Shown piece after piece: positions 1 through 55,200 of a DNA stretch of 64,000 bases. Under the pieces are notes generated by a model, which was not told the DNA's origin, made no database searches, and saw only the letters and a list, made by a program, of their open reading frames with translations. The DNA is from Adineta vaga (Eukaryota; Animalia; Rotifera), in the NCBI GenBank assembly GCA_021613535.1, contig CP075497.1, positions 310,001 through 374,000 of the forward strand, written 5' to 3'. The position numbers and the translations under genes are program-made. The stretch's first letter is position 1; every line of letters starts with the position of its first letter.

Positions 1-164
1 CCAAGTATCGCACCACAACCTATAATAATACTTTATTTTGTTATTTATAAGGAATTGTCACATAGTAGTACGTTGAGAAAGTAGTTGAACTTTGATCATT
101 CATTGGGAACGAATTTAAGTCAAACTTTAACTTCGTGTTTATTTTTAAATATGTTATCTGATAG

Positions 165-3100
165 GAGTGGCCATGCATGACTACATCCGCCGTTCTTTTA
201 CAAAACTGAAGGAATACCTACTAGCATTCAATTTATTTCCATCTGTACCATCTTCAACAGATCAATATGAGCTGCAAACTCAACATATATCAACAAGATT
301 ATTTCTTCTACTATTGATTCTAGCATTATTTATTCTTCTCTTATATACTTCGTTACAAACTGTCACAAAAACATTCACTGTTCAAACACCAACTCTTGAA
401 CAATATTTACAATTATATTCTGAACATGAACAAATACTCACATGTCCATGTACTCAAATATCAATCTCTTATGAAAAATTTCTGTATATTAAATACACAT
501 TACATCAAATATGTCATAGTTTGTTTCTCGCCGATGAATGGATTTCACATATAGGCAAAGGAACTGGTTTTTTCTCAACCCTGGATTTTCGAGCGACGGG
601 TGATTATACATTTCAAGCGTTGAGAGGATTTTGTCAATTAATCGAAGACATACTTTTTAATAGTTTGACTCAATTCAATTCGAGACAATATGTTAGTGGA
701 TTTGTCACGCCCACACAGCTGTTTGGGGCACAAACTGAATCATTCAGTAATCAGTTACGGTCATCTACAACAAACAGTTTTATTCTATCTCTGAATATGA
801 TCCGAAATACAACCCAAGCAAACGCACTATTTACCACAACTCAAAGTAGTTTTTACTTTTACGTACACCGAATTGGAATTGTAGCTGTGCTTCCGGAGAG
901 TTATTCTGATTGCAGTTGTGTTGTATCAAGTGCCTGTACTACTCCATCTAGTATAAAGAATGCGGATAGTGTTGAAGTCTTTTTCAATGTAACCGGTATA
1001 TATACAGGATGCTACCTGATTGAGTCGTTATTTCAATCCAATCTCCAATGCCTCTATGATCAAAACTGTGTAGATAAACTAAATAGTTATATGGTAACAT
1101 TATCGATTAGTTCAGAAGCTTTAAACGCATCAATATCAAGTGAATATTTTCCAAATTCCACTATTATGGACATTCTCAACAATTTAATGATCGAAGAATG
1201 GAAATTAACTCAAATCTATGACAAATATTATAATGAATGTCAACCTTCACACTGCAGCTATACTATTGAAATAAGAAATGATGTTATTTACATCATCACA
1301 ACATTGATTGGTATAATTGGTGGTTTAACAACAGTTTTGAAATTTATTGTATCAAGACTAGTCAAGTTTATAAGAAAGAAGAAAAATGTTACACTGACCA
1401 ACGTCGGTAAGTTGCAATAGTCATATGAGACAATGCAAATAATAATATATTTCATATTCGTAATTCAACACTTTAAAGTCACAATAACTGATCACTGTAT
1501 ATTTTACTACGAGATTAACCTTATTAAGTATCATGAGCTTCATTCACTCGATTCATTTGATGTTTAACAACAAATTCAAACTCTATTCTGTGATTATTAA
1601 TATAATTAATATTTTGTTAACCCCTATTTTCGTTCCAAGATTCCTCGGCTGATGCTGTTTCAGAACATAAGAATTATTTTTTGTTTGAAAGAACCCATCA
1701 ACATGCAGGATAATATAGAGTTCTTTTCTTGATTAAAGTTTTTTGAAAGTTACATATACAGACGTTTCTATAACTTGACCCGAATTTTTCTAATGAAAAG
1801 AAAAGTTCCATGAAACTTCTACATAACCTATTTCTTCCTCACCTCTTTAAAGTTATAATGAATAAAGTATTCATTCCTTATACTCATTTGCTTTCAGTAA
1901 TGACAAAAAAGGAACGAGCAATAGTATTATGGCAAAAATACAAAGACTTCTTGCGAAATTTCAATTTATTTCCATCTGTACCACCTTCAACGGATCAATA
2001 TGAACTGCAAACTCAACACATATCAACAAGATTATTTCTTCTTCTATTGATTCTAGCATTATTTATTCTTCTCTTATATACTTCGTTACAAACTGTCACA
2101 AAAACATTCACTGTTCAAACACCAACTCTTGAACAATATTTACAATTATATTCTGAACATGAACAAATACTCACATGTCCATGTACTCAAATATCAATCT
2201 CTTATGAAAAAATTCTTTATATTAAATACACATTACATCAAATATGTCATAGTTTGTTTCTTTCCAATGAATGGATTGCATATCTTAATCAATATGATGG
2301 TTGGTCTATATCTTCCTTGGACTTTCGAGCGACGAGCCCTTATGCATTTCAAGCGTTGAGAGGATTTTGTCAATTAATCGAAGACATACTTTTAAATAGT
2401 TTCACACAATTGAATTCCACTCAGTATATCAATGGATTTGTCACATCTCTAGAAGTAATTCAAATACAAACTCAATTACTGAGTCATCAATTTAAATCAT
2501 CCATTATCGACAACTTTTTTCTGTCATTTAATATGATTAGAGATACTACAGAAGCAAATCATTTGTACTCAGGACTTAAGACAAATTACATCGTATCATT
2601 GGTGAACCGATCCAATATTCAATGGATACTAACGTCTGATCGAAATTACAAAGATTGTGATTGCGGTATGTCAAGCGAATGCATTCAATCGTCGCCCATT
2701 TATCAAAGCTCTAGTAACATAATTGCATTCAATGCAACAGGTTTCTACACAGGATGCTACGTGATTGAGTCGTTACTTCAATCTAATCTCCAATGCCTCT
2801 ATGATCAAAACTGTGTAGATAATATACAGGTTCTTTTGGCACCAGATTTGGTAATGGATCTGACCGCTCTCAACCCATCAATACCTAGTGAATATTTTCC
2901 AAATTCCACTATTATGGACATTCTCAACAATTTAATGATCGAAGAATGGAAATTAACTCAAATCTATGACAAATATTATAATGAATGTCAACCTTCACAC
3001 TGCAGCTATACTATTGAAATAAGAAATGATGTTATTTACATCATCACAACATTGATTGGTATAATTGGTGGTTTAACAACAGTTTTGAAATTTATTGTAT

Positions 3101-3183
3101 CAAGACTAGTCAAGTTTATAGCACATCGGATTCGAAAATGGAACATGAACGTTGTTCCAGAAATATCGACTGCTGAAACGTGA
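165..3183 (+). CDS. Modular 2-TM / Cys-rich ectodomain protein (bdelloid-type family); last two module exons 165-1406 and 1898-3183, 5' end probably outside the window
   Basis: Two paralogous ~420-aa modules (FNLFPSVP..STRLF-TM..CPC..CYxIESLLQSNLQCLY..YYNECQPSHCSY-TM). Acceptor tag at 162-164, donor G|gtaagt at 1407, acceptor ttcag at 1897; all phase 1 and in frame. Confidence 0.8.
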
Positions 3184-3790: not shown

Positions 3791-5508
3791 TCGTCTTGAT
3801 TTTGATTTTTAGTTTCATTAGTAAATATTATACACAGAGATACAAAAAGTGAATAATATTTAGCTCAACTTTGAATTGAAAGTTTTATTTAATTATAATG
3901 AAAATAATCGCATTTTTTGTTATGAACAGAAACTTGTTTCATTTTTTATCTTAATAAATTAATAAAACTTGTTTTTTTTTCTTGTATTTTGTTATTGTTA
4001 CAACCTTTCTCGAGTGAAAAATATTTTTGCTCAGAACATAAAACTTCATCTGTATTGATCAACGTTTTATTCATTCGTTTTAATATATTTATATCAATCA
4101 ATTTTATAATGTATTCAATCTCATTCATATTTATTCTTATTTGACGATAATTATGTAAGCGTATGGTATTTCAAAGAGTACGACTATTTTAGTTGAAGAT
4201 TATTTACAGATTCTATAGATAAACTTCGTTTCGCTCCTTTAATTTGCTTTTTCCATCTGTTTCTATGAATACAGATTATTATAGTAAAAATATAGACATT
4301 CTTAAATACATATAAAAAACTCTTTATTTCATTTCCAAAACAAAAGATAATGATCAATTAATGACCTGATGATGTGTAACTACACGAGTACTGCCTATCA
4401 ACATTGTATTCTATTTCCGTGCGTTTACCTAATACAGCTAGAGAGAAAAATACAAAATCGTTAAATCTGTCTGCACCATAATTAAAGATCTCCTATACGA
4501 AGAATTTAATACTCGTTCTCCTGAACAAATTAAATTCTATCTATTCCTTTTATCGTAAGTTATTATTTATCAAAATTTTCTCTTAAAATCTTATAACTTA
4601 TATCAACTAGTTTAATATACGTATTTTCTCGAGATAATATCGTTCTAGCTGAAATTATGTCGATCAAAGTGTATTTTGATAGAGTTTGATATGATATCTT
4701 CCATAGTAACATATTTCTATATAAAGGCTTTGTTAGAAAATCGATCTAATATATAATGATATGTTAAGAAAGAGCACGTCAATCATAACACAACAAAAAC
4801 AAATCTGGACAATTAGACTCATGATCAAGGGGATAAGTATAGAAACCAAATGCAGTAGCATCTAAGAATCCAGTTGACACAAAAGCAACCACAAGTTGGT
4901 TTAATTAGATCAGTAGAATAAATTTAAATAAAAATGATTCCGTCTGACTGTAGAGCGTGTAGTTAGAGTGCTCATATCATCCACAACTATCTACTTAAGA
5001 CGAAACCACTTAATCATTGAATTATTAAAAATACACTTCCCATTGCCGGAAGATTAAGGGTGGTGAGAAAAAATATTATAAATGAGATGAAAAATTTTAG
5101 AGCAATACAAAGATTCACGATTATTACATATATGTTCATGAGTATCTCTAGATGATTAATGTGGAAATAGATTGACATGAATGTCAATATTTTTAAAACA
5201 TCTAAATTTCAAATATTATCATGTTTCTTGATTTCTGTGAATAATATCCAAATTTCATTTTCTTATTTTATCTTCATTTCTGAAATCAATTGAATATTAA
5301 ATCATTTATTATTATGTATATAAATAGAACTTATCTTCATATGAAAGATAAATCGAATCGATCTTTTCATTCTCTATTTATACAAATAATTATTTATATT
5401 CTCATGTGCGTCATCATAAGACGAAAAAAGAATATTTTTTGTATCACATCAATAATGAGTCATCATCCGTTCTTTTAAGACTATACTATAAAAAGACACA
5501 ACCCACAC

Positions 5509-7718
5509 ATGAGTTACCTATCCCATACATTGCTCATTCGATTTAATGTCATTTATATTCATAATTACATATTAAACGTGTCTTTTTTTCTTTTATTCCC
5601 CACTATCTCATTCTATTATTTTCACTTATTTATTATTCAGATATGAAATCTCCATTGATAGAAAACCAAATGGCTGATAATGAAGAGCAACAATTAACAA
5701 TGACAAACAAAATCGAAAATAACGATAATCATATGAAAACAAATAGTTACATACCATATACAATTGATATGACAGTAATGAATAATAATAATGATGAAGA
5801 TCAATGTAAAACAATACGTCCTTGTCGAATAATTGATTTAACTGATAAAATATTAAAAGATAAGATAAGTAATTCAATATCAACATCATTTGATCCAATA
5901 ATTGGATATGGAGAAGAATCTCTTTTATCACTTCGTGAATCATGTCAATCACTTATTAATATTATTTATAATATATCATATTATGTTGAAATAGCACTTA
6001 ATAATACTTCATCTAAACCATCTGATGGATTAACAATTGATGAAAGTGCTTCTATTCGTCTTTATACAATGGAATGGGGTAAAGGTAATCAAAGTCTTTA
6101 TTTTATGCTTAATCGTGCACTTAATAATCCAAATCGAGAATATCTTCAACCTTATATGAAATATCTTAAATTATTATTAACTGCATTAGTTAAATTACCT
6201 TGTATGTCACCATTAACAATATGGAGAGGAGTTACTGAAGATTTAAGTAAAGAATTTTTACCTGGTTCATTAATAACATGGTGGGCATTTTCATCATGTA
6301 CAACAGAATTAACTGTTCTTGAAAATAATATTTATTTGGGTAAAAATGGTAATCGAACATTATTTTCAATTGAAACAATTAATTGTCGAACAATTCGTTC
6401 ACATTCAGATTTTATAACTGAAGATGAAGTTATTCTTTTACCAGGAACACAAATGATTGTACAATCACAATTTATGCCAGCTATTGATCTTCATATTATT
6501 CATTTAAAACAAATTATACCTCAAGATATTTTATTAGAACCACCATTTCAAGGTATTTTATTAAAATCAAATATTATTTCTTTTTCTTTATTTCATTTCT
6601 TTCAAATATTTAGGTGCAAATTTTTATCCTGAACCTAAGTAAATTATTAATTTAATTTTTTCTTTTTTTCTTATTTAATCTATTTTATATTTAGAAAACG
6701 TTCGTGGTATCGAAAGAAAACATTTCAGATTCCAATTTGTTTATTTGCAATGTTAATCATTGCTGCAATCATTATTGCTTCGGTTCTTGGAACAAGATTG
6801 GGTAATAGCGAAAATGGTACGATGTTTTTCTTTTTATGAATTGTATTGAATTGAGAAGTTTAAGACATTTGATTTTCCAAGAATCTTTCTCGTCATAATA
6901 ATATGAAAATTTAAATCATTTTTCTTTTCTATACAATAGATACTACTATCAATTGGAAAGGTGGTATGTGGGCTTTTTCGTGTGATTTTCCTGGTATAAA
7001 TACGAATATTGTCCCATCTGAATCATCGTTATGTGGAGAGAAATGTCAAAAAGATTCAAATTGTACACATTTTACGTGGACTAATGAAAACGGTGGTACT
7101 TGTTTTATGAAAGGAGGAAATGTAACGAAACAAGATGCATTCTTCAAAAATGATCCAACTATGATCTGTGGTGTAGCATATCTTAATGATTATGTAATGA
7201 AAAATCAAACTGTAAATTGGGAAGGAAACGATTGGGCTTATGCTTGTGATTTTCCTGATAATACTTTTTCAGATATATTAAGTATAGCAAATGATTGTGG
7301 TGTATTATGTTCTCAAACTCCACCGTGTTCTCATTTTACATGGAGTAAATATAATGGTGGTACATGTTTTATGAAAAAGGGTAATACGACAAAACAAGAT
7401 GCAGTCGTCACTAATGATCAGGGTATGGTCTGTGGTGTTGTACCGACAATTAATATTACGATATCAAATGAAACTATTCAATGGAAAGAAAACAACACAG
7501 CGAATTCATGTGACTTTCATAATAATGATCTTTCAAGCGTTCGAAGTGTAGTAACAGACTGTATTGGATTATGTTCTAAAACTCTATCTTGTACTCATTT
7601 CACGTGGAATTATCATGATGGTGGTACATGTTTTATGAAACAAGGAAATGTATCAAAGAATGATGCATTTTATACAAGTGATCCCACTATGATGTGTGGT
7701 ATTTTACTTTTTCTATAA
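5509..7718 (+). CDS. Type II membrane ADP-ribosyltransferase (ART-TM-3x PAN/apple), copy A
   Basis: Exons 5509-5512 (tentative; an alternative ATG is at 5643), 5641-6552, 6614-6638, 6695-6816, 6940-7718, phases consistent. R-S-E motifs WRGV / FSSCT / EDEV; basic stretch KKRSWYRKK then TM IPICLFAMLIIAAIIIASVLG; three CDFxxN..C..C....CTHFTW...GGTCFMK repeats. Confidence 0.85.
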
Positions 7719-7806
7719 AATATTTTATCACTAAAATGTTTTTGTGTATTTTATTCGATAATAAAAGTTTAATTAAATATTTTTACATGATATAAAAGAA
7801 AATAAA

Positions 7807-10085
7807 CTATATTAAACCACATATCATATTTAAATCATTAGTAGCGATTGCATCTTGTTTGGTCATATTACCCTTTTTCATAAAACATGTACCACCATTG
7901 TATTTATTCCATATGAAATGAGAACACGGAGGTGTTGTAGAACATATTCCAGCACAATCAGTTCCTATACTTATGATATTCGATATATCATTACCAGGAA
8001 AATCACATCCAATTGCTTGATTATTTTTTTGCCAATCTAAAGTTTTATTTGTTATCATGTAATCGAACGTATATGCTATACCGCAGATCATAGTTGGATC
8101 ATTTTTGAAGAATGCATCTTCTCTCGTCACATTTCCTCCTTTCATAAAACAGGTACCACCATTTATCTCAGTCCATGTAAAATGTGTACAATTTCGATTA
8201 TCGTAACATTTACCACCACAAGTTGGTGCAGAAGTTGAAACATTTGATATATCATTGCCATTGAAATCACATGAGTAAGCCCAATTTCTATCATCCCATC
8301 TGATTGTAGTATCAACTAAAGTTTTAAAAAAATTAGTGTGAAGCTGACACCACGAATTCAAATGAGTTCGAACTCCTTGAACAATACATTGCCACAGGTC
8401 GGGAACTACGTGAGGGTGTAGAGAATAGCTGTGTGAGCGCTACAACGCATCCTCCGACCTCCGGCAACATAATTTTCAGAAGTTCGAACTCGATTTGAAT
8501 TCGTGGTACTAGCTCAAGAAAAACTTTGTATATCTCGAGAAAAGAAACTATTCCAATATTTAACTCAAAAATATCTTACTTATTTTCTTCTTTTTAGATT
8601 TTGTTCCAAGAACCGAAGCAATAATGATTGCAGCAATGATTAACATTGCAAATAAACAAATTGGAATCTGAAATGTTTTCTTTCGATACCACGAACGTTT
8701 TCTAAATATAAAATAGATTAAATAAGAAAAAAAGAAAAAATTAAATTAATAATTTACTTAGGTTCAGGATAAAAATTTGCACCTAAATATTTGAAAGAAA
8801 TGAAATAACGGAAAAGAAATAATATTTGATTAATAAAATACCTTCAAATGGTGGTTCTAATAAGATTTCTTGAGGTATAATTTGTTTTAAATGAATAATA
8901 TGAAGATCAATAGCTGGCATAAATTGTGATTGTACAATCATTTGTGTTCCTGGTAAAAGAATAACTTCATCTTCAGTTATAAAATCCGAATGTGAACGAA
9001 TTGTTCGACAATTAATTGTTTCAATTGAAAATAATGTTCGATTACCATTTTTACCCAAATAAATATTATTTTCAAGAACAGTTAATTCTGTTGTACATGA
9101 TGAAAATGCCCACCATGTTATTAATGAACCAGGTAAAAATTCTTTACTTAAATCTTCAGTAACTCCTCTCCATATTGTTAATGGTGACATACAAGGTAAT
9201 TTAACTAATGCAGTTAATAATAATTTAAGATATTTCATATAAGGTTGAAGATATTCTCGATTTGGATTATTAAGTGCACGATTAAGCATAAAATAAAGAC
9301 TTTGATTACCTTTACCCCATTCCATTGTATAAAGACGAATAGAAGCACTTTCATCAATTGTTAATCCATCAGATGGTTTAGATGAAGTATTATTAAGTGC
9401 TATTTCAACATAATATGATATATTATAAATAATATTAATAAGTGATTGACATGATTCACGAAGTGATAAAACAGATTCTTCTCCATATCCAATTATTGGA
9501 TCAAATGATGTTGATATTGAATTACTTATCTTATCTTTTAATATTTTATCAGTTAAATCAATTATTCGACAAGGACGTATTGTTTTACATTGATCTTCAT
9601 CATTATTATTATTCATTACTGTCATATCAATTGTATATGGTATGTAATTTGTATTCGTTACATCTGTATTATTTTGTTCAATGAGATTCTGTTCCATTGA
9701 CGGAATTTTCGTTGCTGAAAAAGAAAAGTAAAATAATTTTATATTTAAATGATTTTTTAACATTTCTTTATCGTAATAGGAAAAAGACTTAAAATCTTTA
9801 TTTGAATCAATAAGAAAATGAGAAATACATTTGAATAGGACAAGTTGAGGTTATTGAGTTTAACTTCTTATTTTCAAAAATATTAAAGGTTATTTTTTGA
9901 CTTTTAATTCAATTTCTTTTCAGTGTTATATAAAATCGAAAATTTGTTTTAAAAAAATTCAATTATAAGAACAATTACCTTTGAAATAATCTGCAATGAA
10001 AACGAAAAAAAGATACGTTTATAGTTTAATTATAAATCTAAATGAGAACAAATCAATTGATGAATGTATTGGATAAGTTACTCAT
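7807..10085 (-). CDS. Type II membrane ADP-ribosyltransferase (ART-TM-2x PAN/apple), copy B, inverted paralog of A
   Basis: ORF 8783-9763 is nearly identical to the copy A ART; the TM exon near 8580-8701 matches A; the PAN exon near 7807-8315 has two repeats. 5' micro-exons ATGA (10085-10082) and ATTATTTCAAAG (~9990-9979) give MNYFKATKIPSMEQ. Confidence 0.85.
8342..8514. mobile_element. Hairpin MITE-like insertion in an intron of ART copy B
   Basis: About 60-bp imperfect inverted arms (agctgacaccacgaattcaaatgagttcgaact... / ...agttcgaactcgatttgaattcgtggtactagct); absent from the equivalent intron of copy A. Confidence 0.7.
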
Positions 10086-10504
10086 GCATAGGTCGTTTTT
10101 TTCTCACATTTGTATTGAAAGAACGAATGACTCAGTATTGATATAATATAAAAAATATTCTTTTTTCGTCTTATTATGACGCACATGAGAATAAGGTAGT
10201 GACTTATATATAAAGAGGGGGTCGGTTATTAAGACTTTTTTTTCGTGATTTGAGCGTGGGTAACTCTCTGGAGGGTGAGAGTGGTTGTGGATGTCTTCTC
10301 TTTCACCACCCACACCTTAGTTGATTATTTCTTTGTTGACTTTATGCAGCGAGAGAAAAAGAGCATCTTTTCATTTGCTTTTATTTGAGATATTCTAGAA
10401 TGTTAGATAAAATAAAAAATGGTGGATGTCAGTGTCGATGTAAATAAAGCATTACTATATATTCTCATCCATAGTGAAACTCGAATAAAACATTTGAGTT
10501 AGAA

Positions 10505-12414: not shown

Positions 12415-13303
12415 CTCGTTGATTGTCGAATACAGCAACGAATAAATCGTTTATATGCATTTCTTTCTTCGTTCTTTTTATATAACGTTGGAAAAAACCA
12501 ACTTTCGATTCAGTATTTGATCTCGTACGATGACGTTATTTGTATTTCTTCGTATGATGCAATTCGTAATGTAAATATTTGTAATTAATATTTATCTGAT
12601 TACATATATTATAAAATAATTTTCTTTGAATTAATTTTGAAGAGATCCATTGAAAAATAATAGTTAAAATTAAGAAAATATGTTATTAAATAATAATGTA
12701 ATTATATATAAACAAATTGATGATAAACATTTATGAAAATAAATATTATTATTTAATTTACTTTTACATATCTAAATAGATTAAATAAAAATCAATAGAA
12801 AATATTTAAAAGAATTAAATAAATAAATTGATGAAAATTAAATTGAGAAAATGGTTTTTTTTTATGAACATTTGATTCGTCATATCCTGGATAATGATAA
12901 GTTGCAGATAAGTCACGAGATTTATGATGAAATATTTGTATTACATAGATATGATATGTATTATCGTCTTTCTTTAATTCTTATAATCAAATTAGTATTT
13001 TTAAAGCAGAGATCAATGAATTTGATCTGATATTTATTCGTAGATAATTGATAAATGTATTCATTCAATCTATTTTAATATTTTGTTACTCAATATTAAA
13101 AAACTAAAGATTTCTCTCTTTTTCAAATCATTAATATATTTATTAATCGTTTCTTTAGACATTATACAAAGATCATTTAATTCGAAAATGAGCTATTGTT
13201 CCATTATTAGAAAATATCTTCTATCTCATACACTTTTTTACATTATACATAACTTGTGGATAAAATCCGAAGTCTCCGTATTTATGATTGTCTATATATA
13301 TAT

Positions 13304-16300
13304 GAGCTAATTGCAAGTTTATTGTACCGTTGTATTTTTGAACGTAAAATTTCAATATCTCGAGTTCTACTCAACCAATCCTCTTGATTTTTTTATCATA
13401 TGCTCTACTAAGTAATTACAATCATCACTGAAAAAATCACTAAATTATCTTGGACCAGTCCTGAGATATTGGCTGCGCAACGTTCAAAAGTCCGATTTAT
13501 GCTGCCATCTTTCGGAGGAAAAGCTGTATGGTCAAGTGATTATGTGTCATTTGAACTTGACAGTTGGTGATATTTTTAATACTCAATCTACACTTCTCAA
13601 ATATGAAACTTGTTGATTCTTTCGATGTAGTTTTTCTTATAATTCCATCGCAATATCATGTGTACATGCAACTCTCTATTTTCGGTCACGCGAGATTAAA
13701 ACTCATTTTGCTACTCAGTGGTCCGCTCAAAACTAATCAGACTGGTGTCAAACGAAAGGCAGTTGATACTATATGAAACCACTACACACTATAAAAGAAT
13801 TGTCCTACTTCTTGTTAATAAAATATCTAAACTAAAATTCAAAAAGTCGAGTGACATACAAAATGTCACGCGAGATTCATCAATTTTTTTGGAGCACAGT
13901 TCTATTATACTACGCCAGAACACAACCAAACTTTCACCATTTTGACTACTCATTGTGGTCGATATCTGGTAAAAATATAAGAATCAGAAGACTTCTCTAT
14001 CGTGCGAAAGACGGAAAAGATTGTGAATATGTCACGCGAGATTTTTTTCAGAAATTTGTCACGCGAGATCTTTACGCATTTAATTACCTCATACATAAGT
14101 TTGGAACGAATGCTTTATATATGACTTAGTACCATATGTAAAGAGCTACGACGGGATATATGAGCTGACTCTACTTTGAATTTGACAGATGGGGAAAGTT
14201 ACAGGAAAACGTTAACGGGTATGCATACCTATTAATTATTCGCTTATTTTCAATTTTTAGAGTATAAATACATACATACAAATATATTTAAAATAGAATA
14301 CGCCGCTTTATTCTCTCGTCTAAACGAATTATGGTTTCTCCTGAGCATATTCAACGTTACAACTTGAAATACCGACAAAAACTTCAGCACCGACGAGCAA
14401 TATCGAAATCTTTTGACCTTCATTTTAAAGCGAAACAAAATGCAAGACAAAGAAAGTGTCGACAACAGAAAAAAGAAACTCAGAAAAAGGTAGCAACTGC
14501 TTCTGCATCTCCATCAAACAAAATAACCTCACGAAAGACCGAAGGAGCTAAACGTCGTCGAGTCAATGCCAGGAAATCGAAAAATCAAACTAAAAAATTA
14601 CTGAAAAAAGTTCAACAACTACAGAAAGAGAATCTGGTGACCAAAAGATTATTATCTAAACAACATTCAGCAAAAATGAAGAGTGTTAATACAACACCAG
14701 CTACATCACCAACACGTTTGTTCATTAATAATATTAGTCCATCAGCCAAGACACGTGCAACCAAACGATTACTTTCTGAAAAAGAAAATTTATCTCGTGG
14801 TTCTGTTTCAAAATTAAGAAAAATAGGTGTAAATTTATCCAACAATTACAATCCACCGTCTAATACACCATCAGCACTCCAAAAAGATATCGAAGACTTT
14901 CTATGTCAAGATGACATTAGTAAACAAGAACCTGATAAGAAAAAACAATTGCACGGAAAACAGATTAGATATCTATTGAACCATTTATCGACTATTCATC
15001 AACGATTTGTAACAGAAACTGGTAACAACTGTCATTACTCAACATTCACACGATATATTCCAGATTTTGTGGTAAAACCAAACGCCAATGATTGGGGTAC
15101 TTGCTTGTGTGTCACCTGTCTTAATCCTCAAATGAAGTTTGAAAAATTACAAAATTTAAAATCTCGATATTCAATTGTAAAATCAGTACTTATCGATGGT
15201 TTAACAGATATAACAGAGCTGGTTACAGATGAAATTAAAACAAAAGATTTCAAGAGTAATTTAGCAATACTCAAAGATGAACGATTCACTATAACATACA
15301 GTGAATGGATTAAGAAGAAGAACGACGAATCTAATATCTTGATCTCAACAAAAACAACGGTCACTTCATCTATTGCAGATTTTGTGGACAAATTCACAAA
15401 TGAAATCGAGGTATGCATGTAGAGTCATATTAGAAAGAAGGAAAACAATAGAGCGAAATTTGAAATTATCACAACTACAAGCATTCGCATTGTATGAGCG
15501 AAGCTCTTGAAAAGGGAAATATTTCAGTGTTCTTTTTACTATGAAGGCAATGATGATTTTTTTGTGTTCGTAGAATTTAACACATCATGTTGATCGAATG
15601 CGTCAACAATATCGAGCAGCAAAGAGTGCAAGACAAATGGCAATCGAAGAAGACGATGTTGTTACTATTCATTTAGATTGGTCCGAGAATTTTAACTTGA
15701 AGCAAGCACGTCCAGATAAAGGTAAATAACTGGGTAGTCGATCTTTACTTAAAGATTTAGATATTACAATGCTTAGAATAAAGTTTTCCTTTGCTAATCG
15801 TCGTACAGATTTTGCTATTCCTACGAATTATTATTATTGACAACTAAAGCATGTTTTTTTAGCTTCATATTACTATGAACAACATATATCAATATTAAGT
15901 GGCTATGTATGGAAAAAAGATGATTGTTATAGTTTTGGTTCTGTGTCCGATGATACTAATCATATGTCGGAAGCGGCATGGACAGCATTACAACCGATAT
16001 TGAACAATTTACAGAACAATTCGTCGAAAATTACCAAGTTAAATTTTATATCTGACTCACCTGTTTCTCAGTATCGAAACAAAACCACTTTTTATTTATT
16101 GAAACAATATGCTACGAGTAATGGAATTACGGTGAAATGGATTTACCTGGAAACTGGTCATGGGAAAGGTATTGCTGATGCTATCGGCGCAACTATTAAG
16201 AGATTGATGGATCAAGCTGTAGCATTTCATCCAGATGAATCTTATACAAACGCACTTGATCTGATTAATGATATTAAGAAAAACACGACTATCAAACTTT

Positions 16301-17071
16301 TTACTTATACGAAAAATGAAATTGACTCATTCAAGAAAAGTATACCATTACTGACAACTGTCAAAGGAACAGCATCATTTCACGAAGTCACGCTTAAACC
16401 AGATGGTAAATTTTATGCAAAAGATACTTCTTTTGGTGCTGAGCGATTGCTGAAAGTAGATTTTTAGATAGATATTGATTTTTTAGACTATACACTATTT
16501 CGTTTTATTTTATTTTTGTGAGTGATGTATAGGTGAAAACATAGATTAGTGCTGGCAAAGCTACTTATTTATCTTTTAGTTTTTTATATTAAACTGTATT
16601 ATGTATTTATCCTTGTCATTTTAACTAATAAAACTAGATAACAATTGGGGTCAAAGCATAAATATTGATACTAGAAAGCTTAAATTCATACGTCAAACGC
16701 AGACTATATCACGATTAAGTTCTTTAGGCACTCTATAAGATTTATATTCCGAACAATTCTCACACTAAATATCACATTAGTATACGTCGTTATGCACAGA
16801 AAACCCTTCTATCATATAACCACAAGTACTAACATCATATCCAAAAAAAAAGGATTTTCAATAGATATGCCAAAAACTTATATTTTGCGACTTTTATGCT
16901 ATTAGAAAATCTCTCCTATCTCGACTATTTTAATAGTGATAGTTGGGAAAATTTAATCCTATTCTCTTCTCATGTACTACTATAGAATGCACTATGCATT
17001 ACGTTCAAAATCAGAAATTTTTTTTTGTCGATTTTTTTTATCAAACGGTACAATAAACTTGCAATTAGCTC
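13304..17071 (+). mobile_element. Full-length Sola2-like DNA transposon (3768 bp)
   Basis: Perfect 28-bp TIR GAGCTAATTGCAAGTTTATTGTACCGTT at both ends, ATAT on both flanks within (TA)n, internal transposase. Confidence 0.88.
14331..16467 (+). CDS. DDD transposase (Sola2-like), 3 exons: 14331-15410, 15574-15721, 15863-16467
   Basis: Spliced frame is open. Motifs CLCxxC, LDWSENF, SDDTNH, ISDSPVSQYRNK, ETGHGKGIADAIG. Confidence 0.85.
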
Positions 17072-17490
17072 ATATATATTAACAAAGATCAATCGAAAAT
17101 TTAATCTTCTAAGAAACATATCATATGATTTAAAGTAGAAAAATATTTTTTAATTGTTTATAAAATATCTAATTTTATATTTCTTCTATTGAAATTCATG
17201 TGTCAAGGTTGATATACAAGAAAATAATTAGAACAAGTTAAGAAAAGAAAATTATTAATAGACATTTATTTTATGTTTTAATTATATATTTTTATTAATT
17301 TATATTTTATATAGAGAACAGAAACGAAAGAGAAATTATTTTTATTTTCATACATAGTTTGATTAATTATTTATTGTTTTTATTGATTTAAAACAGTTAT
17401 TTTGTCTATATATATATATATATATGAATAATTGTAATTTAACAAACCAATTTCTCTCATATTCAAGTCTTTTGATATACATTCATAAAA

Positions 17491-35366: not shown

Positions 35367-36356
35367 ATGTTAAATATTATTATTATTATTATATTGTTTA
35401 TAATTCTTAATCAAACATTTGCTTATCGTTGGCGTAATTCATTTGCTATGAGACCAGCTGGACCAGATGCTCATTGGGGTTATGATTGTCCTGGAAATGA
35501 TTTTTTCAATTTTCATACATCAGGCTTCGAGTGTATGGATGCTTGTCGATGAACATCTGAATGTACTCATATTGTATGGTCAGAAACAAATAATCATACG
35601 TGTTATTTAAAAAATGGTTTATTTTCGGATAAAAATCTCAATTTTATTAATGATCGTGATACAATGTGTTCAAAATCATTTTCTAAAGTAATAGAAGATA
35701 AAGAACTTGATAAATTTAATAATACCATTGAATATAAATGGGATTGTCAAATTCCAAAATGTTCTCTATTTGCTGGTATACTTCGAAGTGATAATCCAGT
35801 TAATGTTTGTCTTAGTGATGGATATTCATTATCGGAAATTAGAAAATTCTTTAAAATTGGTAGTTTGAGAATGTTTATGCACGATCCATCGTATATGTGT
35901 AGTAATCAACAACCATGGTTTATTAATGATTCTTTAGCTTATGGATATGGTTTAATGGAATATGACGTAACTTCAGATATAGATTTTTGTTGTATTTGTT
36001 ATAAATTAAATTTTATGGACAATAAATTAAAACACAAAACAATGATCATTTAAATTATTCATCATGAATCGCAGTTTCACAGAGGTAGGCCTTTAGTTGT
36101 ATTATATGCTCCAGGAAGTAGTGATTATACTGTAAAATGCATCGATCAATGGCGAAATGGTAATTATCAATATGAGTATTCTTCAGATATAAAATCACGT
36201 GAAGAATGTTTTAAACTTCCTCAACCAATACAAAATGGATGTTTATTTAAATATGATTGGTTTAAAGGTATTGAAAAGCCAAATATGATTTATACGAAGA
36301 CACAATGTCCAAAAGAAATTATTGATAGAAGTGGATGTTATCAAGGTGTTGTTTAA
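35367..36356 (+). pseudogene. Signal peptide + PAN/apple + GH45 endoglucanase-like gene with two in-frame stops
   Basis: One continuous frame: DCPGND..C..CR*..CTHIVW..TCYLK; YKWDCQIPKCS; YMCSNQQPWFINDSLAYG; CCICYKLNF; KTMII*; CFKLPQPIQNGCLFKYDWF..CPKEIIDRSGC. Stops at 35550 and 36051. Confidence 0.82.
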
Positions 36357-37554
36357 TCTTTAAAGAAATTCTGTGAAAAAAGAATTCGATTAATTTGCTT
36401 GTTGCAATTTTTTGTCTAACTTTTGATCATCGTATGTCATTTTCTTGTGAACGAATAAAAATATCAATGACTCTCGTATCATTAGATGCAAAATTTAATG
36501 CTGATTGTGAATATGAGATTGAAATTATAAATAGTAGAATTTTCCTAGAAAAGAATTCGATTTACTAGAGGAAGTGGGTCATATATGTTTCTCGTTTTTT
36601 ATAACTAAACTGAAGATTCATACATGGAAAAATTTATTCAGAATTTTTCGTCCAAGAATGCAAAACAAGAACCAACTCTCCAAGTGATTCTATTCGAAAT
36701 AACATTATTTGGATCATTCGAGCCATAGATACGCATAAGTTTATATATTGTGTACAAGTCAAACCTACTATGAATGTTTGCTATGCTGCGCATTGTGTTT
36801 GCTAATGGAACAATATTATATACAAAAGACAGAGAATAGGTTGCGGCACATACTAAAGTAAGAAGAACAAATATATCATTAACAGAATAAATCATAATGA
36901 CTCACATGAAAGTTTATTAGTTGCGTCTAAACAAACAAAAAGTCATTCATTAGAAAAGAAATCAAAAGCTCATCCTTATATAAGTATAAGGAAAAAATAT
37001 AATCAGTGAGAACATGATTCTATTTTATTATATCAATTATTTTCTTGCGAAATCTCTTCGAAGTATATACAATGTTAAAACAAGAACTTTTTAATGACAA
37101 CATAGTGCATGCATTGGTAGTAGAATAGATCGTGACACAGAACATCTATATTCATTTAATCAATAGAAGTATAACAAAAAAGATTTCACGAATTATACTA
37201 TAGAAATAGTTTAGTACTGGAAAACATCCATACCCTCACCCTTTAAAACGATTGCAGTAAAATTAGTTTTGTGAAAGCTAATAAAATGCATTCAAATTTG
37301 AAAACAATTGTGCTTAAAAAACATAGCTTGATAATATTCTTCAGTAGGTTTTGTAATAAATGTGGATCATTTTTCTTTATCAATGTAGAATAAAGAACAA
37401 TATGACGCAGGTAGTGGTAGAGAAAGCGTTAACGTTTTTAAGTAAATAACGTCACAAAAAAAAGATAACTAACGATGAGAAGTTCTATTTATTGCCAATT
37501 TCTTTTAGAAATATTTATTATATTTCATTTTAAGAACAAATTTTTATTAATGAG

Positions 37555-39901
37555 ATGTTTTGTATAACAATCTTCCGTGTTATTTTCGCAGTTTTAGCAA
37601 CATTAATTATTGCCGATGGTTCATATCAGTTTGATTATTCTGGCAAAAATGCTGTTGCTGATTTACTTTCTGTAGCTCGAATTAGTAGAAGAAAACCAGG
37701 TAAAGTACCATCAACACTATCTGAGGTAGGAGCCGAATCCAAAAAAAGGGTTTATATAGCTTCGTATATACATAATCATATATTTTTATGAACTCTTACA
37801 GTTCTCATTACTTTCAGTTACTCAATGTCTTCAGCCATTTGGTATTCCAAATGTTTTTCCAACTGGGTTTTTACCATATTCAGTGATCTCAAATGATTTC
37901 GACAATGATGGCAAACGAGACCTAGCAATTGCCAATGCTGGGGACAATACTGTTAGTATTTTGTTAGGAAATGGTAATCGAACGTTTAGAAACCAGATAG
38001 TATATTCAACTGGGCACAATCCATTTTCAATCATCTCGGGTGATTTTAACAATGATAGTAAAGTAGATCTAGCAGTGGTCAATTTGGACAATGATACAGT
38101 TAGTGTTTTGCTCAATAATGGGGATGGAACATTTCGCAACCAGAGCGTGTACGCAACTGGTAGCCAACCGTTTTCTTTAACAGTGGGTGATTTTACAAAT
38201 GATGGCAAATTAGATCTAGCAGTGATCAATACTGAAGATAATACGGTTAGTGTTTTACTAGGAGATGGCTATGGTAGATTTAAAAATCACACAGTATATC
38301 CAGTTGGGAATACTCCACGCGCTGTGGTAGCAGGTGATTTTACAAATGATGGCAATGTAGACTTGGTAGTAACTAATATGAGAAGTTCTACGTTTAGTTT
38401 ACTTATCGGCAATGGCAATGGAACGTTCCGTGATCAGATGGTATATTCAACTGGCAATGAACCATATTCAGTGATTGCATGTGATTTTAACAACGACAAT
38501 AAACTGGATCTGGCAATTACTAATCTGTTTATGCCAATGGTAACTATTTTTCTTGGTAATGGGAATGCAACGTTCGAAATTTCGGGCGGATACAAAGTTG
38601 ATGACGTACCGTTTTCAGCCATATCAGGTGATTTCAATAAAGATGGCAAACTAGATATTGCAGTAACCAGTTTTAATAACGATGTAATTAATGTTTTTCT
38701 TGGTAAAGGTAATGGAGAATTCAAAAATCGGACAACATATTATGCAGGACTCATGCCAATTTCAGCTACATCGGATGATTTCAACAATGACGGTAAACTA
38801 GATTTGGCAGTAGTCAATAGTGATAATGCAATTGTTAATCTTCTTTCTAATAATGGAGACGGGACATATCGAGATCAAAGACGGTATCTAACTGATTACA
38901 AACCATATTCAGTGATCTCGGGCGATTTTAATAAAGATGGCAAACCAGATGTGATAGTAGGTAACTATGACAATCCGGTAGTGACTGTACTTCTAGGTAA
39001 TGGACGCGGCGCATTCGAAAATCAGACAGAGTACTTAGCTGGATATTATCCACGTGCAATAATATCAGGCGACTTTAATAATGATAATATATTAGATCTA
39101 GTAGCGGCCAATAGTGACGATAATACGGTTAGTGTACTCCTTGGTAATGGTGATGCTTCCTTCCGTAATCAAACAATGTATTCAACTGGAAATCAACCAA
39201 CGTCAGTGGTTTCGAGTGATTTCAACAATGACGGCAAATTGGATCTTGCCGTAGCAAATGTTCTAAGTAACTCCGTTAGTATTTTACTTGGCAATGGTGA
39301 TGGATCATTCAGCAATAAGATGGAGTACTCAACTGGTAGCGAACCAACTTCTGTCATATCTAATGATTTCAATAATGATGGATATAAAGATTTAGCAGTA
39401 GCAAATGTTGTCAGTTGTACAGTGAGCATATTTCTTGGAAAAGGCGATGGTACATTCGGTAATCAGACAGTATACTTCACTGGATTGTTTCCTAGATCAG
39501 TGATATCAAATGACTTCAATAACGATGGTAAACTAGATTTAGCAGTAGCCAATTCATACTTTAATCAGAATGGTACAGTCAGCATTTTTTTGGGTCGTGG
39601 AGATGGCACATTTGATAATTCCACTGAATACATGACTGGATATGGACCATATGCAGTGATCTCCGGTGATTTCAACAACGATACTAAACTTGATTTAGTA
39701 GTGGTCAATGGCGCTAGCTCAACAGTTAGCGTATTACTCGGCAACACTGACGGCAGCTTTCAAAATCAGCTACAATATCTAAGTGGAGAAAGTCCAAAAT
39801 CAGTAACATCTGTTGATTTAAATAACGATAAAAAACTTGACTTGGTAATCGCAAATAAGGTGGGATCCAGTTTGACCATTCTTCTGAACTCTTGTTCATA
39901 A
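37555..39901 (+). CDS. Secreted FG-GAP/VCBS repeat protein, 14 repeats; exons 37555-37699, 37818-39901
   Basis: Hydrophobic N-terminus, phase-1 intron, 14 DFNxDGxxDL..LGNGDGTF repeats. Confidence 0.9.
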
Positions 39902-45660: not shown

Positions 45661-48600
45661 TCAATTACAATCAGCTGAGAAAACACCGACATTATTTCCA
45701 TCGTAATTTGGAACAATAAGATCGAGTTTACCATCAGAATTAATGTCTGCTGTTACTACAGCATAAAGAGGATATCCTGTAGCGTAGGTCTTTTGAGAAC
45801 CGAAAGTACCGTTTCCAATATTGAGGAGAACGCCAACGTTGTTTGACGCGGAGTTTGCAACAATGATGTCTAATTTGTTGTCTCCATTCATGTCGCCAGT
45901 TACTACAAAGTATGGTTGCGAACCAGTGGCATAGATCATTTGAGTCCCAAACGTTCCAGTGCCGGTATTAAGGAGAACACCAACGTTGTTTGAGCCGTAA
46001 TTAGCGACGATAATGTCCGGTTTGCCGTCTAAATTGACATCAGCTACTGCTACAGAATGCGGCTGACTGCCAGTTGAATAAGTGACTTGAGTACCAAATA
46101 TACCAGCACCACTGTTAAGGAAAACACCAACGTTGTTTGCACCATTATTTGCGACAATAATGTCGGGTTTGTTATCTCCATTGACGTCAATTGCCGACAC
46201 AGAATGCGGCTGAGAGCCAGCTGGATAGGTCACTTGAGCACCGAATGTACCAATTCCGGTGTTGAGGAGAACACCGATATTGTTTGACAAAAGGTTTGCA
46301 ACAATAATGTCGGGTTTGTTATCTCCGTTGAGGTCAACGATCGAAGCCGAATGCGGCTGAGAACCAGTACCGGTGGAATAGATGACTTGAGGCGCGAACG
46401 TGCCAGTACCATTATTAAGAAGAATGCCAACGTTACCTGCATCAGAATTTGCGACAATTAGATCGAGTTTACCGTCGGAATTGACATCAACTGCTCCGAC
46501 AGACCACGTCAAACCAGGACCCACTGAATATTTGACTAGACCAGCAAACGTACCGTTACCAGTATTAAAAAGAATACCAATTTCATCTGAGCCAGAAAGT
46601 CCCACCACAATGTCCGGCTTTCCATTACCCTTAAGGTCACCTGTTGTTATGGGAAATGGCTTAGATCCACTGCCAGTTGAATAGGTAATTTGTGTCGTAA
46701 AATTTGTACATACAACTGTTATGAGAAAACAAAACATTAGCTTTTATGTGATAATATCGAAGGATCGCGTTATTGAAACGGTTTTGTTTTTGTAAGAACT
46801 TTCTCTCAGAAATTGCTGCTACAAAGCAAACGAAAAGGTAGGAAGTGTTTTCTTTGAAAAAGTTTTCGCTTGCTTTCGATTAATCTCAATATTTTGTCTT
46901 ATTACCATCACAGTTTCTACTAGAGTATATACCCTCATATGTCTAACTGCAAACTGACAGGCTGTCGTATTTTTAAAATACTTAGTTCAGATTATGTGGA
47001 AAATTTCACATTAGTTTTAGACTGGAAGTTTATATCCAGACTCATCAATGCGAATTTTGGCACGACAGATAGAATTCAATAAAAGTCGTATGTATATAAA
47101 GGTAAGTCAAAGCACACGAGAATATATGCACAAACAACGCACTCGCATGGACAAATTTTGGTATCTCGTGTCATATGTTATCTCATTATAAAGAAACAAC
47201 AAGTTTTCTAGTCTGTTCCTTTTATCTGTAGTGCGCCATCAACTACGCGACAAGAAAACAGGGTAAGATTGAAAAAGTCAATGAGAAAAACCGGATGGTT
47301 AACAGCTTCTTCTACTAGCCCTATAGACAGAATGTTTATCGTATATGGGAGTACAAAAGCAAATGCGATCTTACCTCTTGTAGTTGATGTTGTCAATGCT
47401 GTTGAGGAAACCGTTGTTGAAGCTGTTGTCGAAATCGTTGTTGATGCTGCTGTTGTTGAAGCTGTTGTGGACACCGTTGTTGAAGCTGTAGTAGAAATCG
47501 TTGTTGAAGCTGTAGTGGAAATCGTCGTTGATGCTGCTGTTGTTGAAGCTGTAGTGGAAATCGTTGTTGATGCTGCTGTTGTTGCGTTTACTGGTTGTAC
47601 TGATATTGTGATTGTTGCTGAATTAGGTTTGGTGAGAAAGGAGAGAAGTATTGCAGCAATAATAGTGCCAAGAAGAATAAGAGCAATTAGAGACAACAAT
47701 AAACAGCAAGGTGAACATCGGAAACAAATGGAATAAAGAAAACTAAGTAAAAGATTTTCAAAATATAACATGGAAAAAAGTGCAAAACATTTATTTACCC
47801 TTTCTTTTTGTTTCTTTTTGACTTCTGATATCGTGTATCTCTTAAATCTGTTTGGTTTAACTGTTTATCAGGTACCTAAATTGATTTAAAAGATAACTAT
47901 GAATAACAAATAAATAGGTAGTTTCGGTCAGATATGCGCCGAGTAGCTTGCATTCAATCAGTAGGATACAAGTATTTAATTTATGTATGTCTACCTGCTG
48001 ATAAGAACCCAATTTTGGACGGAATGCATTATTTTCGGTTCATACTTAATCCAGTAGATTGACATACAAAAAATCAGATGCTTGTTACATTTTGATATAA
48101 CACAAGTTCTTAGCAATTCATTCAATTATTAACTATGCAGTTTTAGCATAAAATCAATTCAAAATATTTGTAATATTGTACCAACTTAGTTTTACATCTA
48201 ATCACTGACTTTCAAATATAGGGATGAGTTCTGTTTATTTTTACTGATGAATCATTATTGACTATTGATGCTCTTTCTTGATTGTATGCTTCATATTTCC
48301 CAGCTGTGTCATCTGTTCTTGTTGGCAGGCCATTCTGTTGTGGTGAGTTTTTCTTCATATCATAATTTTTGTCTTGACTGCGTAATGGCTATTACGAAAG
48401 AAAAAGACCTCAACAGATTTTGAAATGACAATCATAGTCACACAATCACCCTCCATTATCAAAATATTTATGAACGTTATTTAAAGGATCTCACCGAAAG
48501 CAAATTGTTTTCATGCTTGACAGACTTGTTGCTTGTTGAAGTGATACTCTTTGGTGACCGAATGGTTGCATGAATGACAACATTAGGTCGCTTGGCTTTT

Positions 48601-52200: not shown

Positions 52201-55200
52201 ATATTGAAATTAAAGGTGATGATACTTTTATGTACATCCTTATCCTAAAGAGTATATACTAACCTTGAAGCCATCTATTTCGTTTCAAAGCATCAAAATC
52301 TGCATCAGTCATATTCTCCCGTTCTTTGATTAATCTTTGAATTAATATTTCCATTGTTTCATTGAATGATAAAGTTTGAGATTCAATAAATGATTGTAAA
52401 TGAAAAGTACGACATCCAATTCGTTTAAGAAATTCAATTGAAACGAAATCTTGTTGAATGATATTGAATTCAATAATTGGAATATCAGATGATGAAAGAA
52501 TTGTTGATGGAATATATGATTCATCAGGTATTCTTATACCACGTGTTGTTTGTATACATTTAATATCAGATAAAATTAATTTTATTTTATTCCATTCTGA
52601 TTCTTGAAATAGATTTGATTGTTTTGAAAGAAAACTAAGTAATTGTTCATTAGCACGTAAATGATAAAATATATATCCTTGATTTGGATGTAAATAATAA
52701 TCAATTATCTCGATAATTGACCATGGAGTTAATTTTAATTTTCTTTGAAGTTCTTCTCTTGAAAAATGAATAACAATATTATTTGATAAAATATATTGTG
52801 GAAGTTTAAGAAGTGATGGAATATTAAATAAATCATAATATTTTAAGTTTTTAACTAATATTATATTTGATTGAATTGTTTCTTGAAATCGAACAAGAGA
52901 AAGAATACGTTGAGACCATTCATTAGTTATTTCATTTCTAGATAAATAATGAATTAATTGAATAAATTCTTTAAGTGTAAGAATAGAAATGGATTCGGAA
53001 AGTTTATGTTCAATTAATTGATAATCAACATATTTTATTAATCCACGTTGATGAAAACATCTAAGAAAATCATTTTGACATAATTCAAATGAAACAAGAG
53101 GAATTCGAAGAAATAAATCGATATATGGAGAAGAAGATAAATATGCATTTTTAAACAAATGTATACGTAAACGAGAGTCTGTTGTTGAAGTAATCACAGG
53201 TACAAAAAGTTTTGATTCATTAATGAAGAATGCTGATTGAATTGTATCACATAAAAATAAGAAATATATATGTATATGTTATGTATATTTTGATATATTT
53301 CATACTGATCTCATTGTTTAGTACAGAAGATTGAAATTGAAATGGAGAAATTGAAAGAAATGCTTCTTGTTTTGTTTTGATAGATGTACTATTAGTTATC
53401 ATTTGATCATAAATAAATCGAACAATTTGTCCAGTTGACAAAAGTAATTCTTTATTCCATTGTGAAATATATGAATCTTGAAAATTAAGATTTTCACGTT
53501 CGATTGTTGGTATAAAATGACTGAAAATATGCATTCCAATGCCTGTTGTTTGTTGTGTTCCAAGACCAATAAATATATAACCTTGAAATATATTAATCAT
53601 TAATATTATAATTGAAAACAAAAGCAATAGTTAACTAACCAGTAGGAATTATTTTTTCTTTACAGAATTTGATTGGTAAAATGGATTTGAAAATTGTATT
53701 ATCGATTTCAAGATCTGTTGATGATTGAATTTGTTTAATTACCTATGAAATGGAAAGATATGAAAATATTAAACGAAACAGAAATCAAATGTACAGAGTT
53801 GGGTGTATATAAAAGTTCAATATGAATTGTATTTAGTAAATCTTTCTTTAGAATGTGTCGAATTTGTTGATGAAATTCTTTATTAATTATTACAGATGCT
53901 TTTATAGAAATATGATTTAAAGTAATAGAAGGACCATCAGTAATTGTGAATGTTTGTTCGTTTTGAACAATTGAATCAAAACGAAATAAATGGTTCAAGG
54001 ATTTTTTTACATCAAAATCCACTATAGTCATCGGTAAGATTTGACGTGTTTTAGTCTTGCGAATTTCAAATACGTTTTTATCATTGATTTTAATAACAAG
54101 TTCATTAATATGCTTAGTAAATGAAAGTACTAAAATCAAAAAAAATATATACAGAAGATATATAATATGAGAATTGTTATTTTTAACCTTTTGTGAAATA
54201 ACTTTTCAGTTGAGGTAAATTCATAGTTAAGAAAGTTTCAGTTTGCTCGGTAATTGGATGATTCAATAAAATATATTTTTTGTTTAAAGATAAACAAATT
54301 GAAGTCGGATGTGGTTGTTTCTCAACAGGTAAACTACGAATACATGTTTTCAAAACTTTATCATCTTGCCAAGTAAAGGTCATCAATTTTGTCCCCGAAA
54401 TAATGATTGGTTCTTCACAAAGTGAAAACACAGAGAAAAATCCAACACCAAACTGACCAACTGAATCAACGTCCGTATTTCCTTCTGCAATAGTAGCTAC
54501 GCGATTCCAATCGATTTCACTAAAATCACGTCCATTGTTAGTTGCACAAATTTCTGTAATACAACTATTATGAAAATCCATCTCTAAGAAAATAAACAAC
54601 GATTCGATTGATAAAATTATATGATCGACATCCTCACTCCAAAATTCTTCGGGTATTACTACTTTACGCTAACACCACACACACCCAACTTTTCGAGATG
54701 GCATGTTGGTCACTCCTACTAACACCCACAACTCGATGAGTTATGCTCACTAACACCCCCTTTCTTAACCTTTTAAGAGAAGTAAACCCCTGACAAACTC
54801 GAAAAAATCACCTTCTTCAACGCTAACACCCAATAACTCTCTTATAGTCCACACAAACATCCAAACTAGTCTAAACTAACACCCACACAATTGAAAAATC
54901 TACATTTTTGAAAGCAAACGTCGTGTGCTCCCATTGAGTTTTAGGGATCTGGGTGAACATCTGGGTGGAATTCTTAAGGGTCTCAAATTAGTGCGCGAAA
55001 GTAGACCAGAATTTTCCCATTTCTTTCTATGATATACACCCTCACTCATGAGGCTGAAAGGGTACAAAGCTTATGAAATATGTTGATATGAGTCTGTATG
55101 AATATGTGTGGGTGTGGGTGAAGATAGGGATTGACTTGTTCATATTAAGCGAAGGATGAGTTTGGTAGCGAGTAAGCGTTAATGCACTTTAGGACATCAT

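Follow-up and report, generated by a model that had tools for sequence, protein, structure and literature searches.

The analysed window is a 64,000-nt stretch of the genome of the rotifer Adineta vaga (contig CP075497.1, assembly GCA_021613535.1), and all coordinates below are positions in this window. It contains two convergent (tail-to-tail) genes, A and B, both with open frames, in which Pfam and a hydropathy scan place an ADP-ribosyltransferase (ART) domain, a single transmembrane (TM) helix, and an array of PAN_4 repeats, in this order, with three repeats in A and two in B. All six introns of the pair have GT-AG borders and preserve the frame. Named A. vaga records match both genes; the public model I4U23_027375 is a truncated version of A, and I4U23_027376 joins B to the gene upstream of it and omits the catalytic core. 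Since both public models (5643–9697) lose part of the ART domain, database domain counts underestimate ART-TM-PAN genes. Contigs from four DNA runs of four studies were aligned to the locus, using the best-supported contigs only, together with three RNA-like runs (X9, X15, and X19; labels beginning with X denote sequencing runs), none of which is recorded as RNA, their status being judged from splicing or an automatic guess. The features of the pair are as follows.

Gene A, + strand, exons 5643–6552, 6614–6638, 6695–6816, and 6940–7718; 611 aa, three PAN repeats
5372–5594, +, upstream (promoter/5') region of A, 77% identical to the B upstream region (10217–10000), with a 67-bp core at 93%
5643–6552, +, A exon 1, variable N-terminus and R-S-E (arginine-serine-glutamate) ART domain (PF01129, E 1.3e-6); the putative start is the first in-frame ATG
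5747–6795, +, homogenised tract in A (ART, two introns, TM), 99.3% identical to 9647–8601
6614–6638, +, A exon 2, a 25-nt micro-exon; X9 contig joints 6550–6612 and 6638–6695
6695–6816, +, A exon 3, basic motif and single TM helix (approximately aa 324–344); spliced in X9 and X15
6940–7718, +, A exon 4, three PAN/apple repeats (PF14295, three matches), predicted ectodomain; stop codon 7716–7718
7076–7129 (outer bounds 7058–7130), +, polymorphic conversion patch in PAN1 of A, from X9 and X11 contigs
7719–7806, no strand, 88-bp spacer between the stop codons, bridged by contigs in all four DNA runs and by one contig in X9
7760 and 7801 (+) and 7755–7750 (−), AATAAA signals in the spacer
Gene B, − strand, exons 9697–8842, 8782–8758, 8701–8580, and 8315–7807; 503 aa, two PAN repeats
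7807–8315, −, B exon 4, two PAN repeats (PF14295, two matches), frame intact; stop codon 7809–7807
8316–8579, −, B intron 3 with a hairpin of approximately 190 bp; GT-AG, phase kept
8580–8701, −, B exon 3, TM helix identical to that of A, then a lysine-rich linker
8601–9647, −, homogenised tract in B
8758–8782, −, B exon 2, micro-exon identical to A exon 2
8842–9697, −, first coding exon of B, N-terminus and ART domain (PF01129, E 1.1e-6)
10000–10217, −, upstream region of B, homologous to that of A

The arms of the inverted repeat extend over 5712–6829 and 8567–9682, and within them a tract of 1.05 kb differs between the genes by only seven substitutions and one 2-bp indel. A preliminary description of the locus, made from the sequence alone, had reported such a near-identical stretch with ends within 4 bp of the measured ones, an intron shared between the copies (6639–6694, which carries no difference), divergent N-termini and PAN exons, and stop codons about 88 bp apart, all of which was borne out. 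Six of the eight differences fall within 61 bp (6527–6587), and the intron 6553–6613 carries two of the substitutions and the indel; this clustering suggests tracts of different age. Outside the tract, the N-termini (35 aa in A and 17 aa in B) align poorly, whereas repeats of the two PAN arrays align in register, with nucleotide identities of 75% for A1/B1 and 78% for A2/B2 and 62–70% for the cross pairs. Synonymous divergence is not uniform along the gene in the dS/dN comparison that the preliminary description had proposed: the tract codons show 2 synonymous differences in 199 sites (dS 0.010, dN 0.004), whereas the PAN exon codons show 36 in 99 sites (dS 0.50, dN 0.26; Fisher p 1.5e-17). 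Taken together, the upstream DNA at 77% and the in-register PAN repeats at 75–78% make the whole gene an old duplicate with a young middle. A recent duplication of the whole gene was rejected, since both flanks are 75–78% alike. Local synonymous and intronic identity within an older duplicate, as found here, is the mark of interlocus gene conversion.

The homology of the upstream DNA and the long hairpin in intron 3 of B are additions to the preliminary description. The hairpin (8333–8512; fold z −11.2), with 20 mismatches in 241 bases between its two alleles, is likely a miniature inverted-repeat transposable element (MITE)-like insertion absent from A, and an Rfam search of 5200–10400, which included it, gave no match. 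Splice-like signals upstream of the first coding exon of B point to a likely non-coding intron there.

Near-identical inverted arms might also arise in assembly, by placing alleles side by side or by homogenising the arms in polishing, and palindromes of the earlier (2013) A. vaga assembly were judged to be scaffolding artefacts (PMC8494291). At this locus, a single contig bridges both 3' ends in each of the four DNA runs, PAN3 of A occurs in all four as two allelic versions, which depart from the window by 6 and 8 differences, and two versions of intron 3 of B occur in X3. Since the junction is bridged and each gene has its own alleles, two alleles of one gene placed side by side cannot account for A and B. 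Independent assembly graphs collapse the tract, its contigs reaching 1.6–2.6 times the depth of the junction contigs (depth being a rough guide). In X9 the three introns of A are spliced, and in X15 an unbranched spliced contig of 1846 nt links the N-terminus of A to the last repeat of its PAN exon; the same pattern also recurs in another genome, as described below. An assembly origin draws some support from the contigs of X1 and X5, which differ from both arms at 6000, so that the exact eight differences may partly be a product of polishing. Given the bridged junction and the separate alleles, we consider it highly improbable.

Signs of conversion between the two genes extend beyond the tract. 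At all nine A/B differences between 7058 and 7130 in PAN1 of A, contigs of X9 and X11 carry the B state, and X15 has the A state of the window itself. The 5' switch lies inside an 18-bp stretch common to A and B, which is shorter than the 31-mers presumably used in these assemblies, and X9 has no contig continuing from the patch into B (8059–8315); a jump in the assembly graph is thus an unlikely origin. This contig-based patch segregates in another allele of A, the direction of transfer being likely from B to A, and conversion therefore probably reaches the sensor half too. The preliminary description had proposed arm-to-arm conversion limited to the effector half; the conversion is strongly supported, and the limit does not hold, as PAN is patched as well and old A-type and B-type residues persist in it.

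A scan of metagenome contigs yielded 51 loci, five of which contain an ART exon (L001–L005); L002 and L003 are the same DNA in two assemblies, as are L004 and L005. The contig of L002/L005, which is likely bdelloid and is referred to here as the second genome, carries two inverted, head-to-head ART-TM-PAN pairs 17.7 kb apart. Among its four copies, the proportion of synonymous differences (pS) is 0.00–0.13 in the ART core and 0.26–0.51 in PAN, with identical runs of up to 387 nt between the members of a pair and of up to 249 nt between copies of different pairs in direct orientation, although collapse in assembly could inflate identity among these metagenome copies. Informative sites favour a grouping of the ART domains by pair (16/3/6) and of the PAN domains by type (8/57/5). 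The palindrome that the preliminary description took as the basis of conversion is not a requirement, since direct copies 17.7 kb apart share the 249-nt ART run. Three of the four copies (L002 3475–6498 and L005 3475–6513) are single open frames without the three introns of the window and L001, and the fourth has one likely intron of 54 nt. A third ART-TM gene with a different, unassigned ectodomain (L005:3–1367, − strand) lies 2 kb from the second inverted pair.

Synonymous and intronic identity amid flanks of 75–78%, the B-identical patch in an allele of A, and the recurrence in the second genome together give strong support to conversion, and arm-to-arm exchange between the paralogues is very probably the origin of the tract. 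Repeated inter-paralogue gene conversion would overwrite the ART-plus-TM tract in A and B; it would run over the whole gene and be tolerated least at the type-defining residues of PAN.

L001 shares the three intron positions of A, and a further locus, L006, contains a B-like PAN exon. Quartets of copies were compared following the test of PMC2588116, and sites were counted as grouping by species, by type, or in the third pattern. The ART quartet groups entirely by species (112/0/0), and the PAN quartets gave 38/22/0, 31/25/3, 41/26/2, and 31/14/9, the excess of type over third-pattern sites being significant in three of them (p 2e-7, 1e-5, and 2e-6). Paralogues are thus closer to each other in the tract, and an orthologue signal is found elsewhere in the gene. 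Type sites cluster at the codon level in two quartets (p 1e-4 for the window with L001/L006, and 0.014), and a test resembling the pairwise homoplasy index (PHI) gave p 0.009–0.02. The A-type and B-type copies of three genomes are separated by W/Q at repeat 2, E/S, N/(E,D), and G/x, and the same genomes differ from one another at synonymous sites by pS 0.46–0.78. A strict trans-species A/B tree over the whole PAN exon was rejected, as the tree follows species except in the second genome and the signal is a mosaic. By these site patterns, homogenisation is complete in the ART domain, and PAN combines the types in a mosaic; the two types would predate the split of the sampled species, and they are probably kept distinct by selection.

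The structural model of the ART domain (predicted local distance difference test score, pLDDT, 84.5; PF01129 above the cut-off; Foldseek E 3e-10) has its best VIA-align matches in ART2.2 (Z 16.8, root-mean-square deviation 3.3, 204 residues aligned), the 6drh toxin (Z 16.5), and HopU1 (Z 15.8), and Vis is also matched. A sequence search of the domain against PDB gave nothing useful, so that fold searches were needed. Exon 1 of A encodes R195, S217/S218, and E260-x-E262; R195, S218, T, E260, and E262 are invariant in all 118 aligned relatives, and R195, S218, and E262 are present in both A and B, the catalytic residues being assigned from the motif and the fold rather than from a superposition residue by residue. 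The fold and the Arg/Ser/Glu motif place the domain in the R-S-E (ARTC) class. An ExE motif is associated with arginine specificity, and the sequence at this place is E260-D-E262. In the hydropathy scan, neither protein has the hydrophobic N- or C-terminal segment that characterises vertebrate ecto-ARTCs.

Relatives of this domain are numerous (3243 in one listing), and an Atlas search returned rotifer ART clusters only, with scores of 0.84 or less. The 60 longer relatives examined (61 less P0004, which was left out) comprise 26 proteins with the ART-TM-ectodomain order, 20 without a TM helix, and 14 left unscored because the motif search missed them. The ectodomain of the 26 is LamG in half of them (13), FG-GAP in 6, peroxidase in 3, PAN in 2, and an unassigned region in 2; the ART side is the more basic one in 22 of the 26, and all of the named ones are bdelloid. 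Three of 13 records (P0335, P0338, and P0343) join the ART half of one paralogue to the ectodomain of another; these may be true swaps or chimeras, and they were not used as evidence, since short reads can be assembled across from one copy to another where the cores are identical. Protein P0031, recorded under Sphagnum balticum, is also a close ART relative and likely reflects rotifer contamination.

The PAN model (pLDDT 89.9) has apple-domain matches at E 2e-11, with PF14295/PF00024 above the cut-off, and shows a PAN fold; its matches are the apple domains of factor XI, prekallikrein, SML-2, and MIC4. By sequence, the nearest solved relatives are the galactose lectins MIC4 and SML-2, and related PAN repeats are fused to glucanase, cellulase, thaumatin, GH20/CBM1 proteins, and proteases. 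The window itself holds a secreted-looking PAN + GH45 gene with in-frame stops (35370–36360; a pseudogene or a gene with unseen introns), as well as FG-GAP arrays (37760–39901 and 45661–46743) resembling the ectodomains found on ART-TM elsewhere, with no ART detected here. A complex prediction for the ectodomains of A and B scored 0.00 and is uninformative.

As to topology, the TM helix of A is the sole hydrophobic window above 1.6 in the whole protein. The basic cluster on its N-side, the lack of a signal peptide or glycosylphosphatidylinositol (GPI) tail, and the 18 cysteines and nine N-glycosylation sequons of the PAN side agree with a single-pass type II layout, less clearly so for B. On this sequence evidence, we lean slightly toward A and B being type II membrane receptor-enzymes. 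The ART domain would then face the cytosol and PAN the outside, where it would bind glycans of microbial or food surfaces, and this binding would cluster the receptors and lead to NAD+-dependent mono-ADP-ribosylation of arginine in a cytosolic target. A specifically immune role may be entertained tentatively, as it agrees with the large ART family, the toxin-type effector, the lectin-like ectodomains, and the suggestion that glucan-binding proteins are possible recognition receptors (PMC11258130). Conversion could also be real and the role non-immune, i.e., adhesion, feeding, or sensing of matrix glycans, or else the enzyme could be an ecto-ART of opposite topology, as in vertebrate ARTCs. The opposite topology would agree with the ecto-enzyme ART2.2 as the closest structure and with four N-glycosylation sequons in the ART half, and it conflicts with the missing signal peptide and GPI tail, with the basic cluster on the ART side, and with the cysteines and sequons of PAN. 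A non-immune role would suit the binding of proteins by other PAN/apple domains and the response to fungal exposure, after which the Gene Ontology (GO) term for arginine ART is enriched solely in the down-regulated sets of supplement 14 of PMC11258130 (Nowell 2024), with 6 and 19 of 431 genes in A. vaga and 8 of 366 in A. ricciae; these data are at the class level, A and B being unmapped to the identifiers of that study. Hundreds of ART copies with many swapped ectodomains would rather fit a family driven by conflict, and we consider these non-immune or inverted alternatives improbable.

The poly(A) signals at 7760 (+) and 7755 (−) predict an overlap of approximately 50 nt between the 3' untranslated regions (UTRs) of A and B. 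In X19, a contig of A terminates at 7785, and a single X9 contig, which carries no strand information, runs across the two stop codons. A functional double-stranded RNA formed by the two 3' UTRs would be an unlikely consequence of this arrangement.

The best overall explanation of the locus, to which we assign a probability of roughly 0.6, combines a converted ART-TM tract with type II receptor-enzymes bearing two selected PAN types. Several observations in addition to the expression data weigh against it. The evidence consists of contigs, without any read across the repeat, and the runs may share the strain of the window; L001 and L006, which lie on different contigs, are taken by assumption to be of one species. 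One of the four cross-species PAN quartets (31/14/9) is not significant (p 0.20), and one of the three tested at the codon level shows no significant clustering (p 0.25); in the whole-PAN tree, A and B of the same species fall together (94/96), the second genome excepted. The top Foldseek matches of PAN are protein-binding apple domains (factor XI and prekallikrein), and five lysines directly after the TM helix of B (KSKKKK) weaken the topology call for this protein. An excess of amino-acid changes at type sites is seen in one of three quartets only (p 0.001, 0.73, and 0.74), and the domain-wide dN/dS of PAN is approximately 0.5. As a weak hint only, PAN1 and the 5' half of B are uncovered in the three RNA-like runs, where only the end of its PAN2 is seen (X9 and X19).

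The dN/dS value, the two quartets lacking non-synonymous enrichment, and the scarcity of B in RNA would all be expected if conversion were neutral and homology-dependent, with the PAN halves drifting apart without selection for two sensors. Constrained ART and TM sequences would then stay similar enough to convert, and indels, intron 3, and its hairpin would stop the tracts, whose ends do match the indel-rich N-terminus and the linker/intron 3. Such neutrality is unlikely in our view, because conversion does enter PAN, as evidenced by the patch and the species-pattern sites, yet type residues separate the copies of three genomes and persist although synonymous sites between these genomes have diverged extensively. 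The preliminary picture of a constant effector and a diversifying ectodomain needs correction in one respect, in that a dN/dS of about 0.5 does not show positive selection on PAN.

Elsewhere in the window, a foldback element (54648–55550) with arms of approximately 370 bp, 94–97% identical, interrupts a sacsin-like gene (PF25794). Perfect 36-bp inverted repeats (13296–17079) surround open reading frames at 14292–16467 without a good Pfam match, the element being likely a DNA transposon. A tandem duplicate (149–3183 and 60318–61607) without a Pfam match is 86–98% identical in patches and is accompanied by a third copy, inverted and 70% identical; it may be under patchy conversion too.

With this locus, A. 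vaga, whose earlier palindromes were judged to be artefacts, has a genuine inverted duplicate of small size that carries a segregating conversion patch. Both the rate of inter-paralogue conversion and the selection acting against it can thereby be measured in an ancient asexual. A broader and rather doubtful proposal is that bdelloids possess a class of receptor ADP-ribosyltransferases, in which a cytosolic toxin-type arginine ART with a TM helix is combined with interchangeable lectin-like ectodomains (PAN, LamG, FG-GAP, and peroxidase), and inverted pairs share one effector and reshuffle patches of two ancient sensor types. If true, this would provide recombination-based receptor diversity without sex in an asexual animal. 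Receptor kinases and cyclases are textbook systems; a ligand-gated arginine ADP-ribosyltransferase receptor of an animal is undescribed in the open-access literature searched. Within the available portions of the rotifer papers among PMC12220480, PMC10809525, PMC12957317, PMC8878817, PMC3482391, and PMC5916493, ADP-ribosylation figures as a GO term or is unmentioned.

Among known enzymes, the R-S-E mono-ARTs (rat ART2.2, HopU1, Vis, ExoS, and the 6drh toxin) share with A and B the fold (Z 12.6–16.8, approximately 200 residues aligned at best) and the R-S-E triad, at 15–20% identity. In vertebrate ARTCs, which carry a GPI anchor or are secreted, the ART domain is extracellular (PMC10789625), whereas A and B have an internal TM helix after the ART domain and ahead of the PAN array. 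The membrane-anchored ARTD PARP16 has a cytoplasmic ART domain beside a TM helix, as predicted here, but belongs to the H-Y-E family, and the available portion of PMC10789625 describes no large variable ectodomain for it. On the sensor side, the PAN/apple lectins MIC4 of Toxoplasma, SML-2 of Sarcocystis, and CBEL of oomycetes share the PAN fold and the motif CxHFT(W/Y)...C..K; these lectins are reported to bind galactose/GalNAc (PMC6608980, PMC3532174) and differ in having no fusion to ART.

The mechanism of conversion is itself a familiar one. Y-chromosome palindromes also undergo conversion between their inverted arms (PMC7953838), but the arms here are approximately 2.4 kb long and mostly 75–78% alike, only a 1-kb tract being near-identical, and copies in direct orientation convert too in the second genome. 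Clusters of orthologue-shared sites amid paralogue-shared ones, as seen here, underlie the type-C/type-N test of Osada and Innan 2008, where they are read as selection against conversion (PMC2588116); the present case differs in the asexual animal, the recurring inverted pairs, and the homogenisation of an entire enzyme domain. Vertebrate paired receptors (KLRC, KLRA, and PIR) likewise show domain-restricted homogenisation of neighbouring genes, termed 'merohomogenization', but with opposite polarity, the ligand-binding domain being homogenised and the signalling part different (PMC3210942), so that the preliminary description overstated the likeness in calling the pattern typical of immune receptors. 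This polarity, the polymorphic patch in the sensor, the sensor types shared across species, and the receptor-ART family appear to be new.

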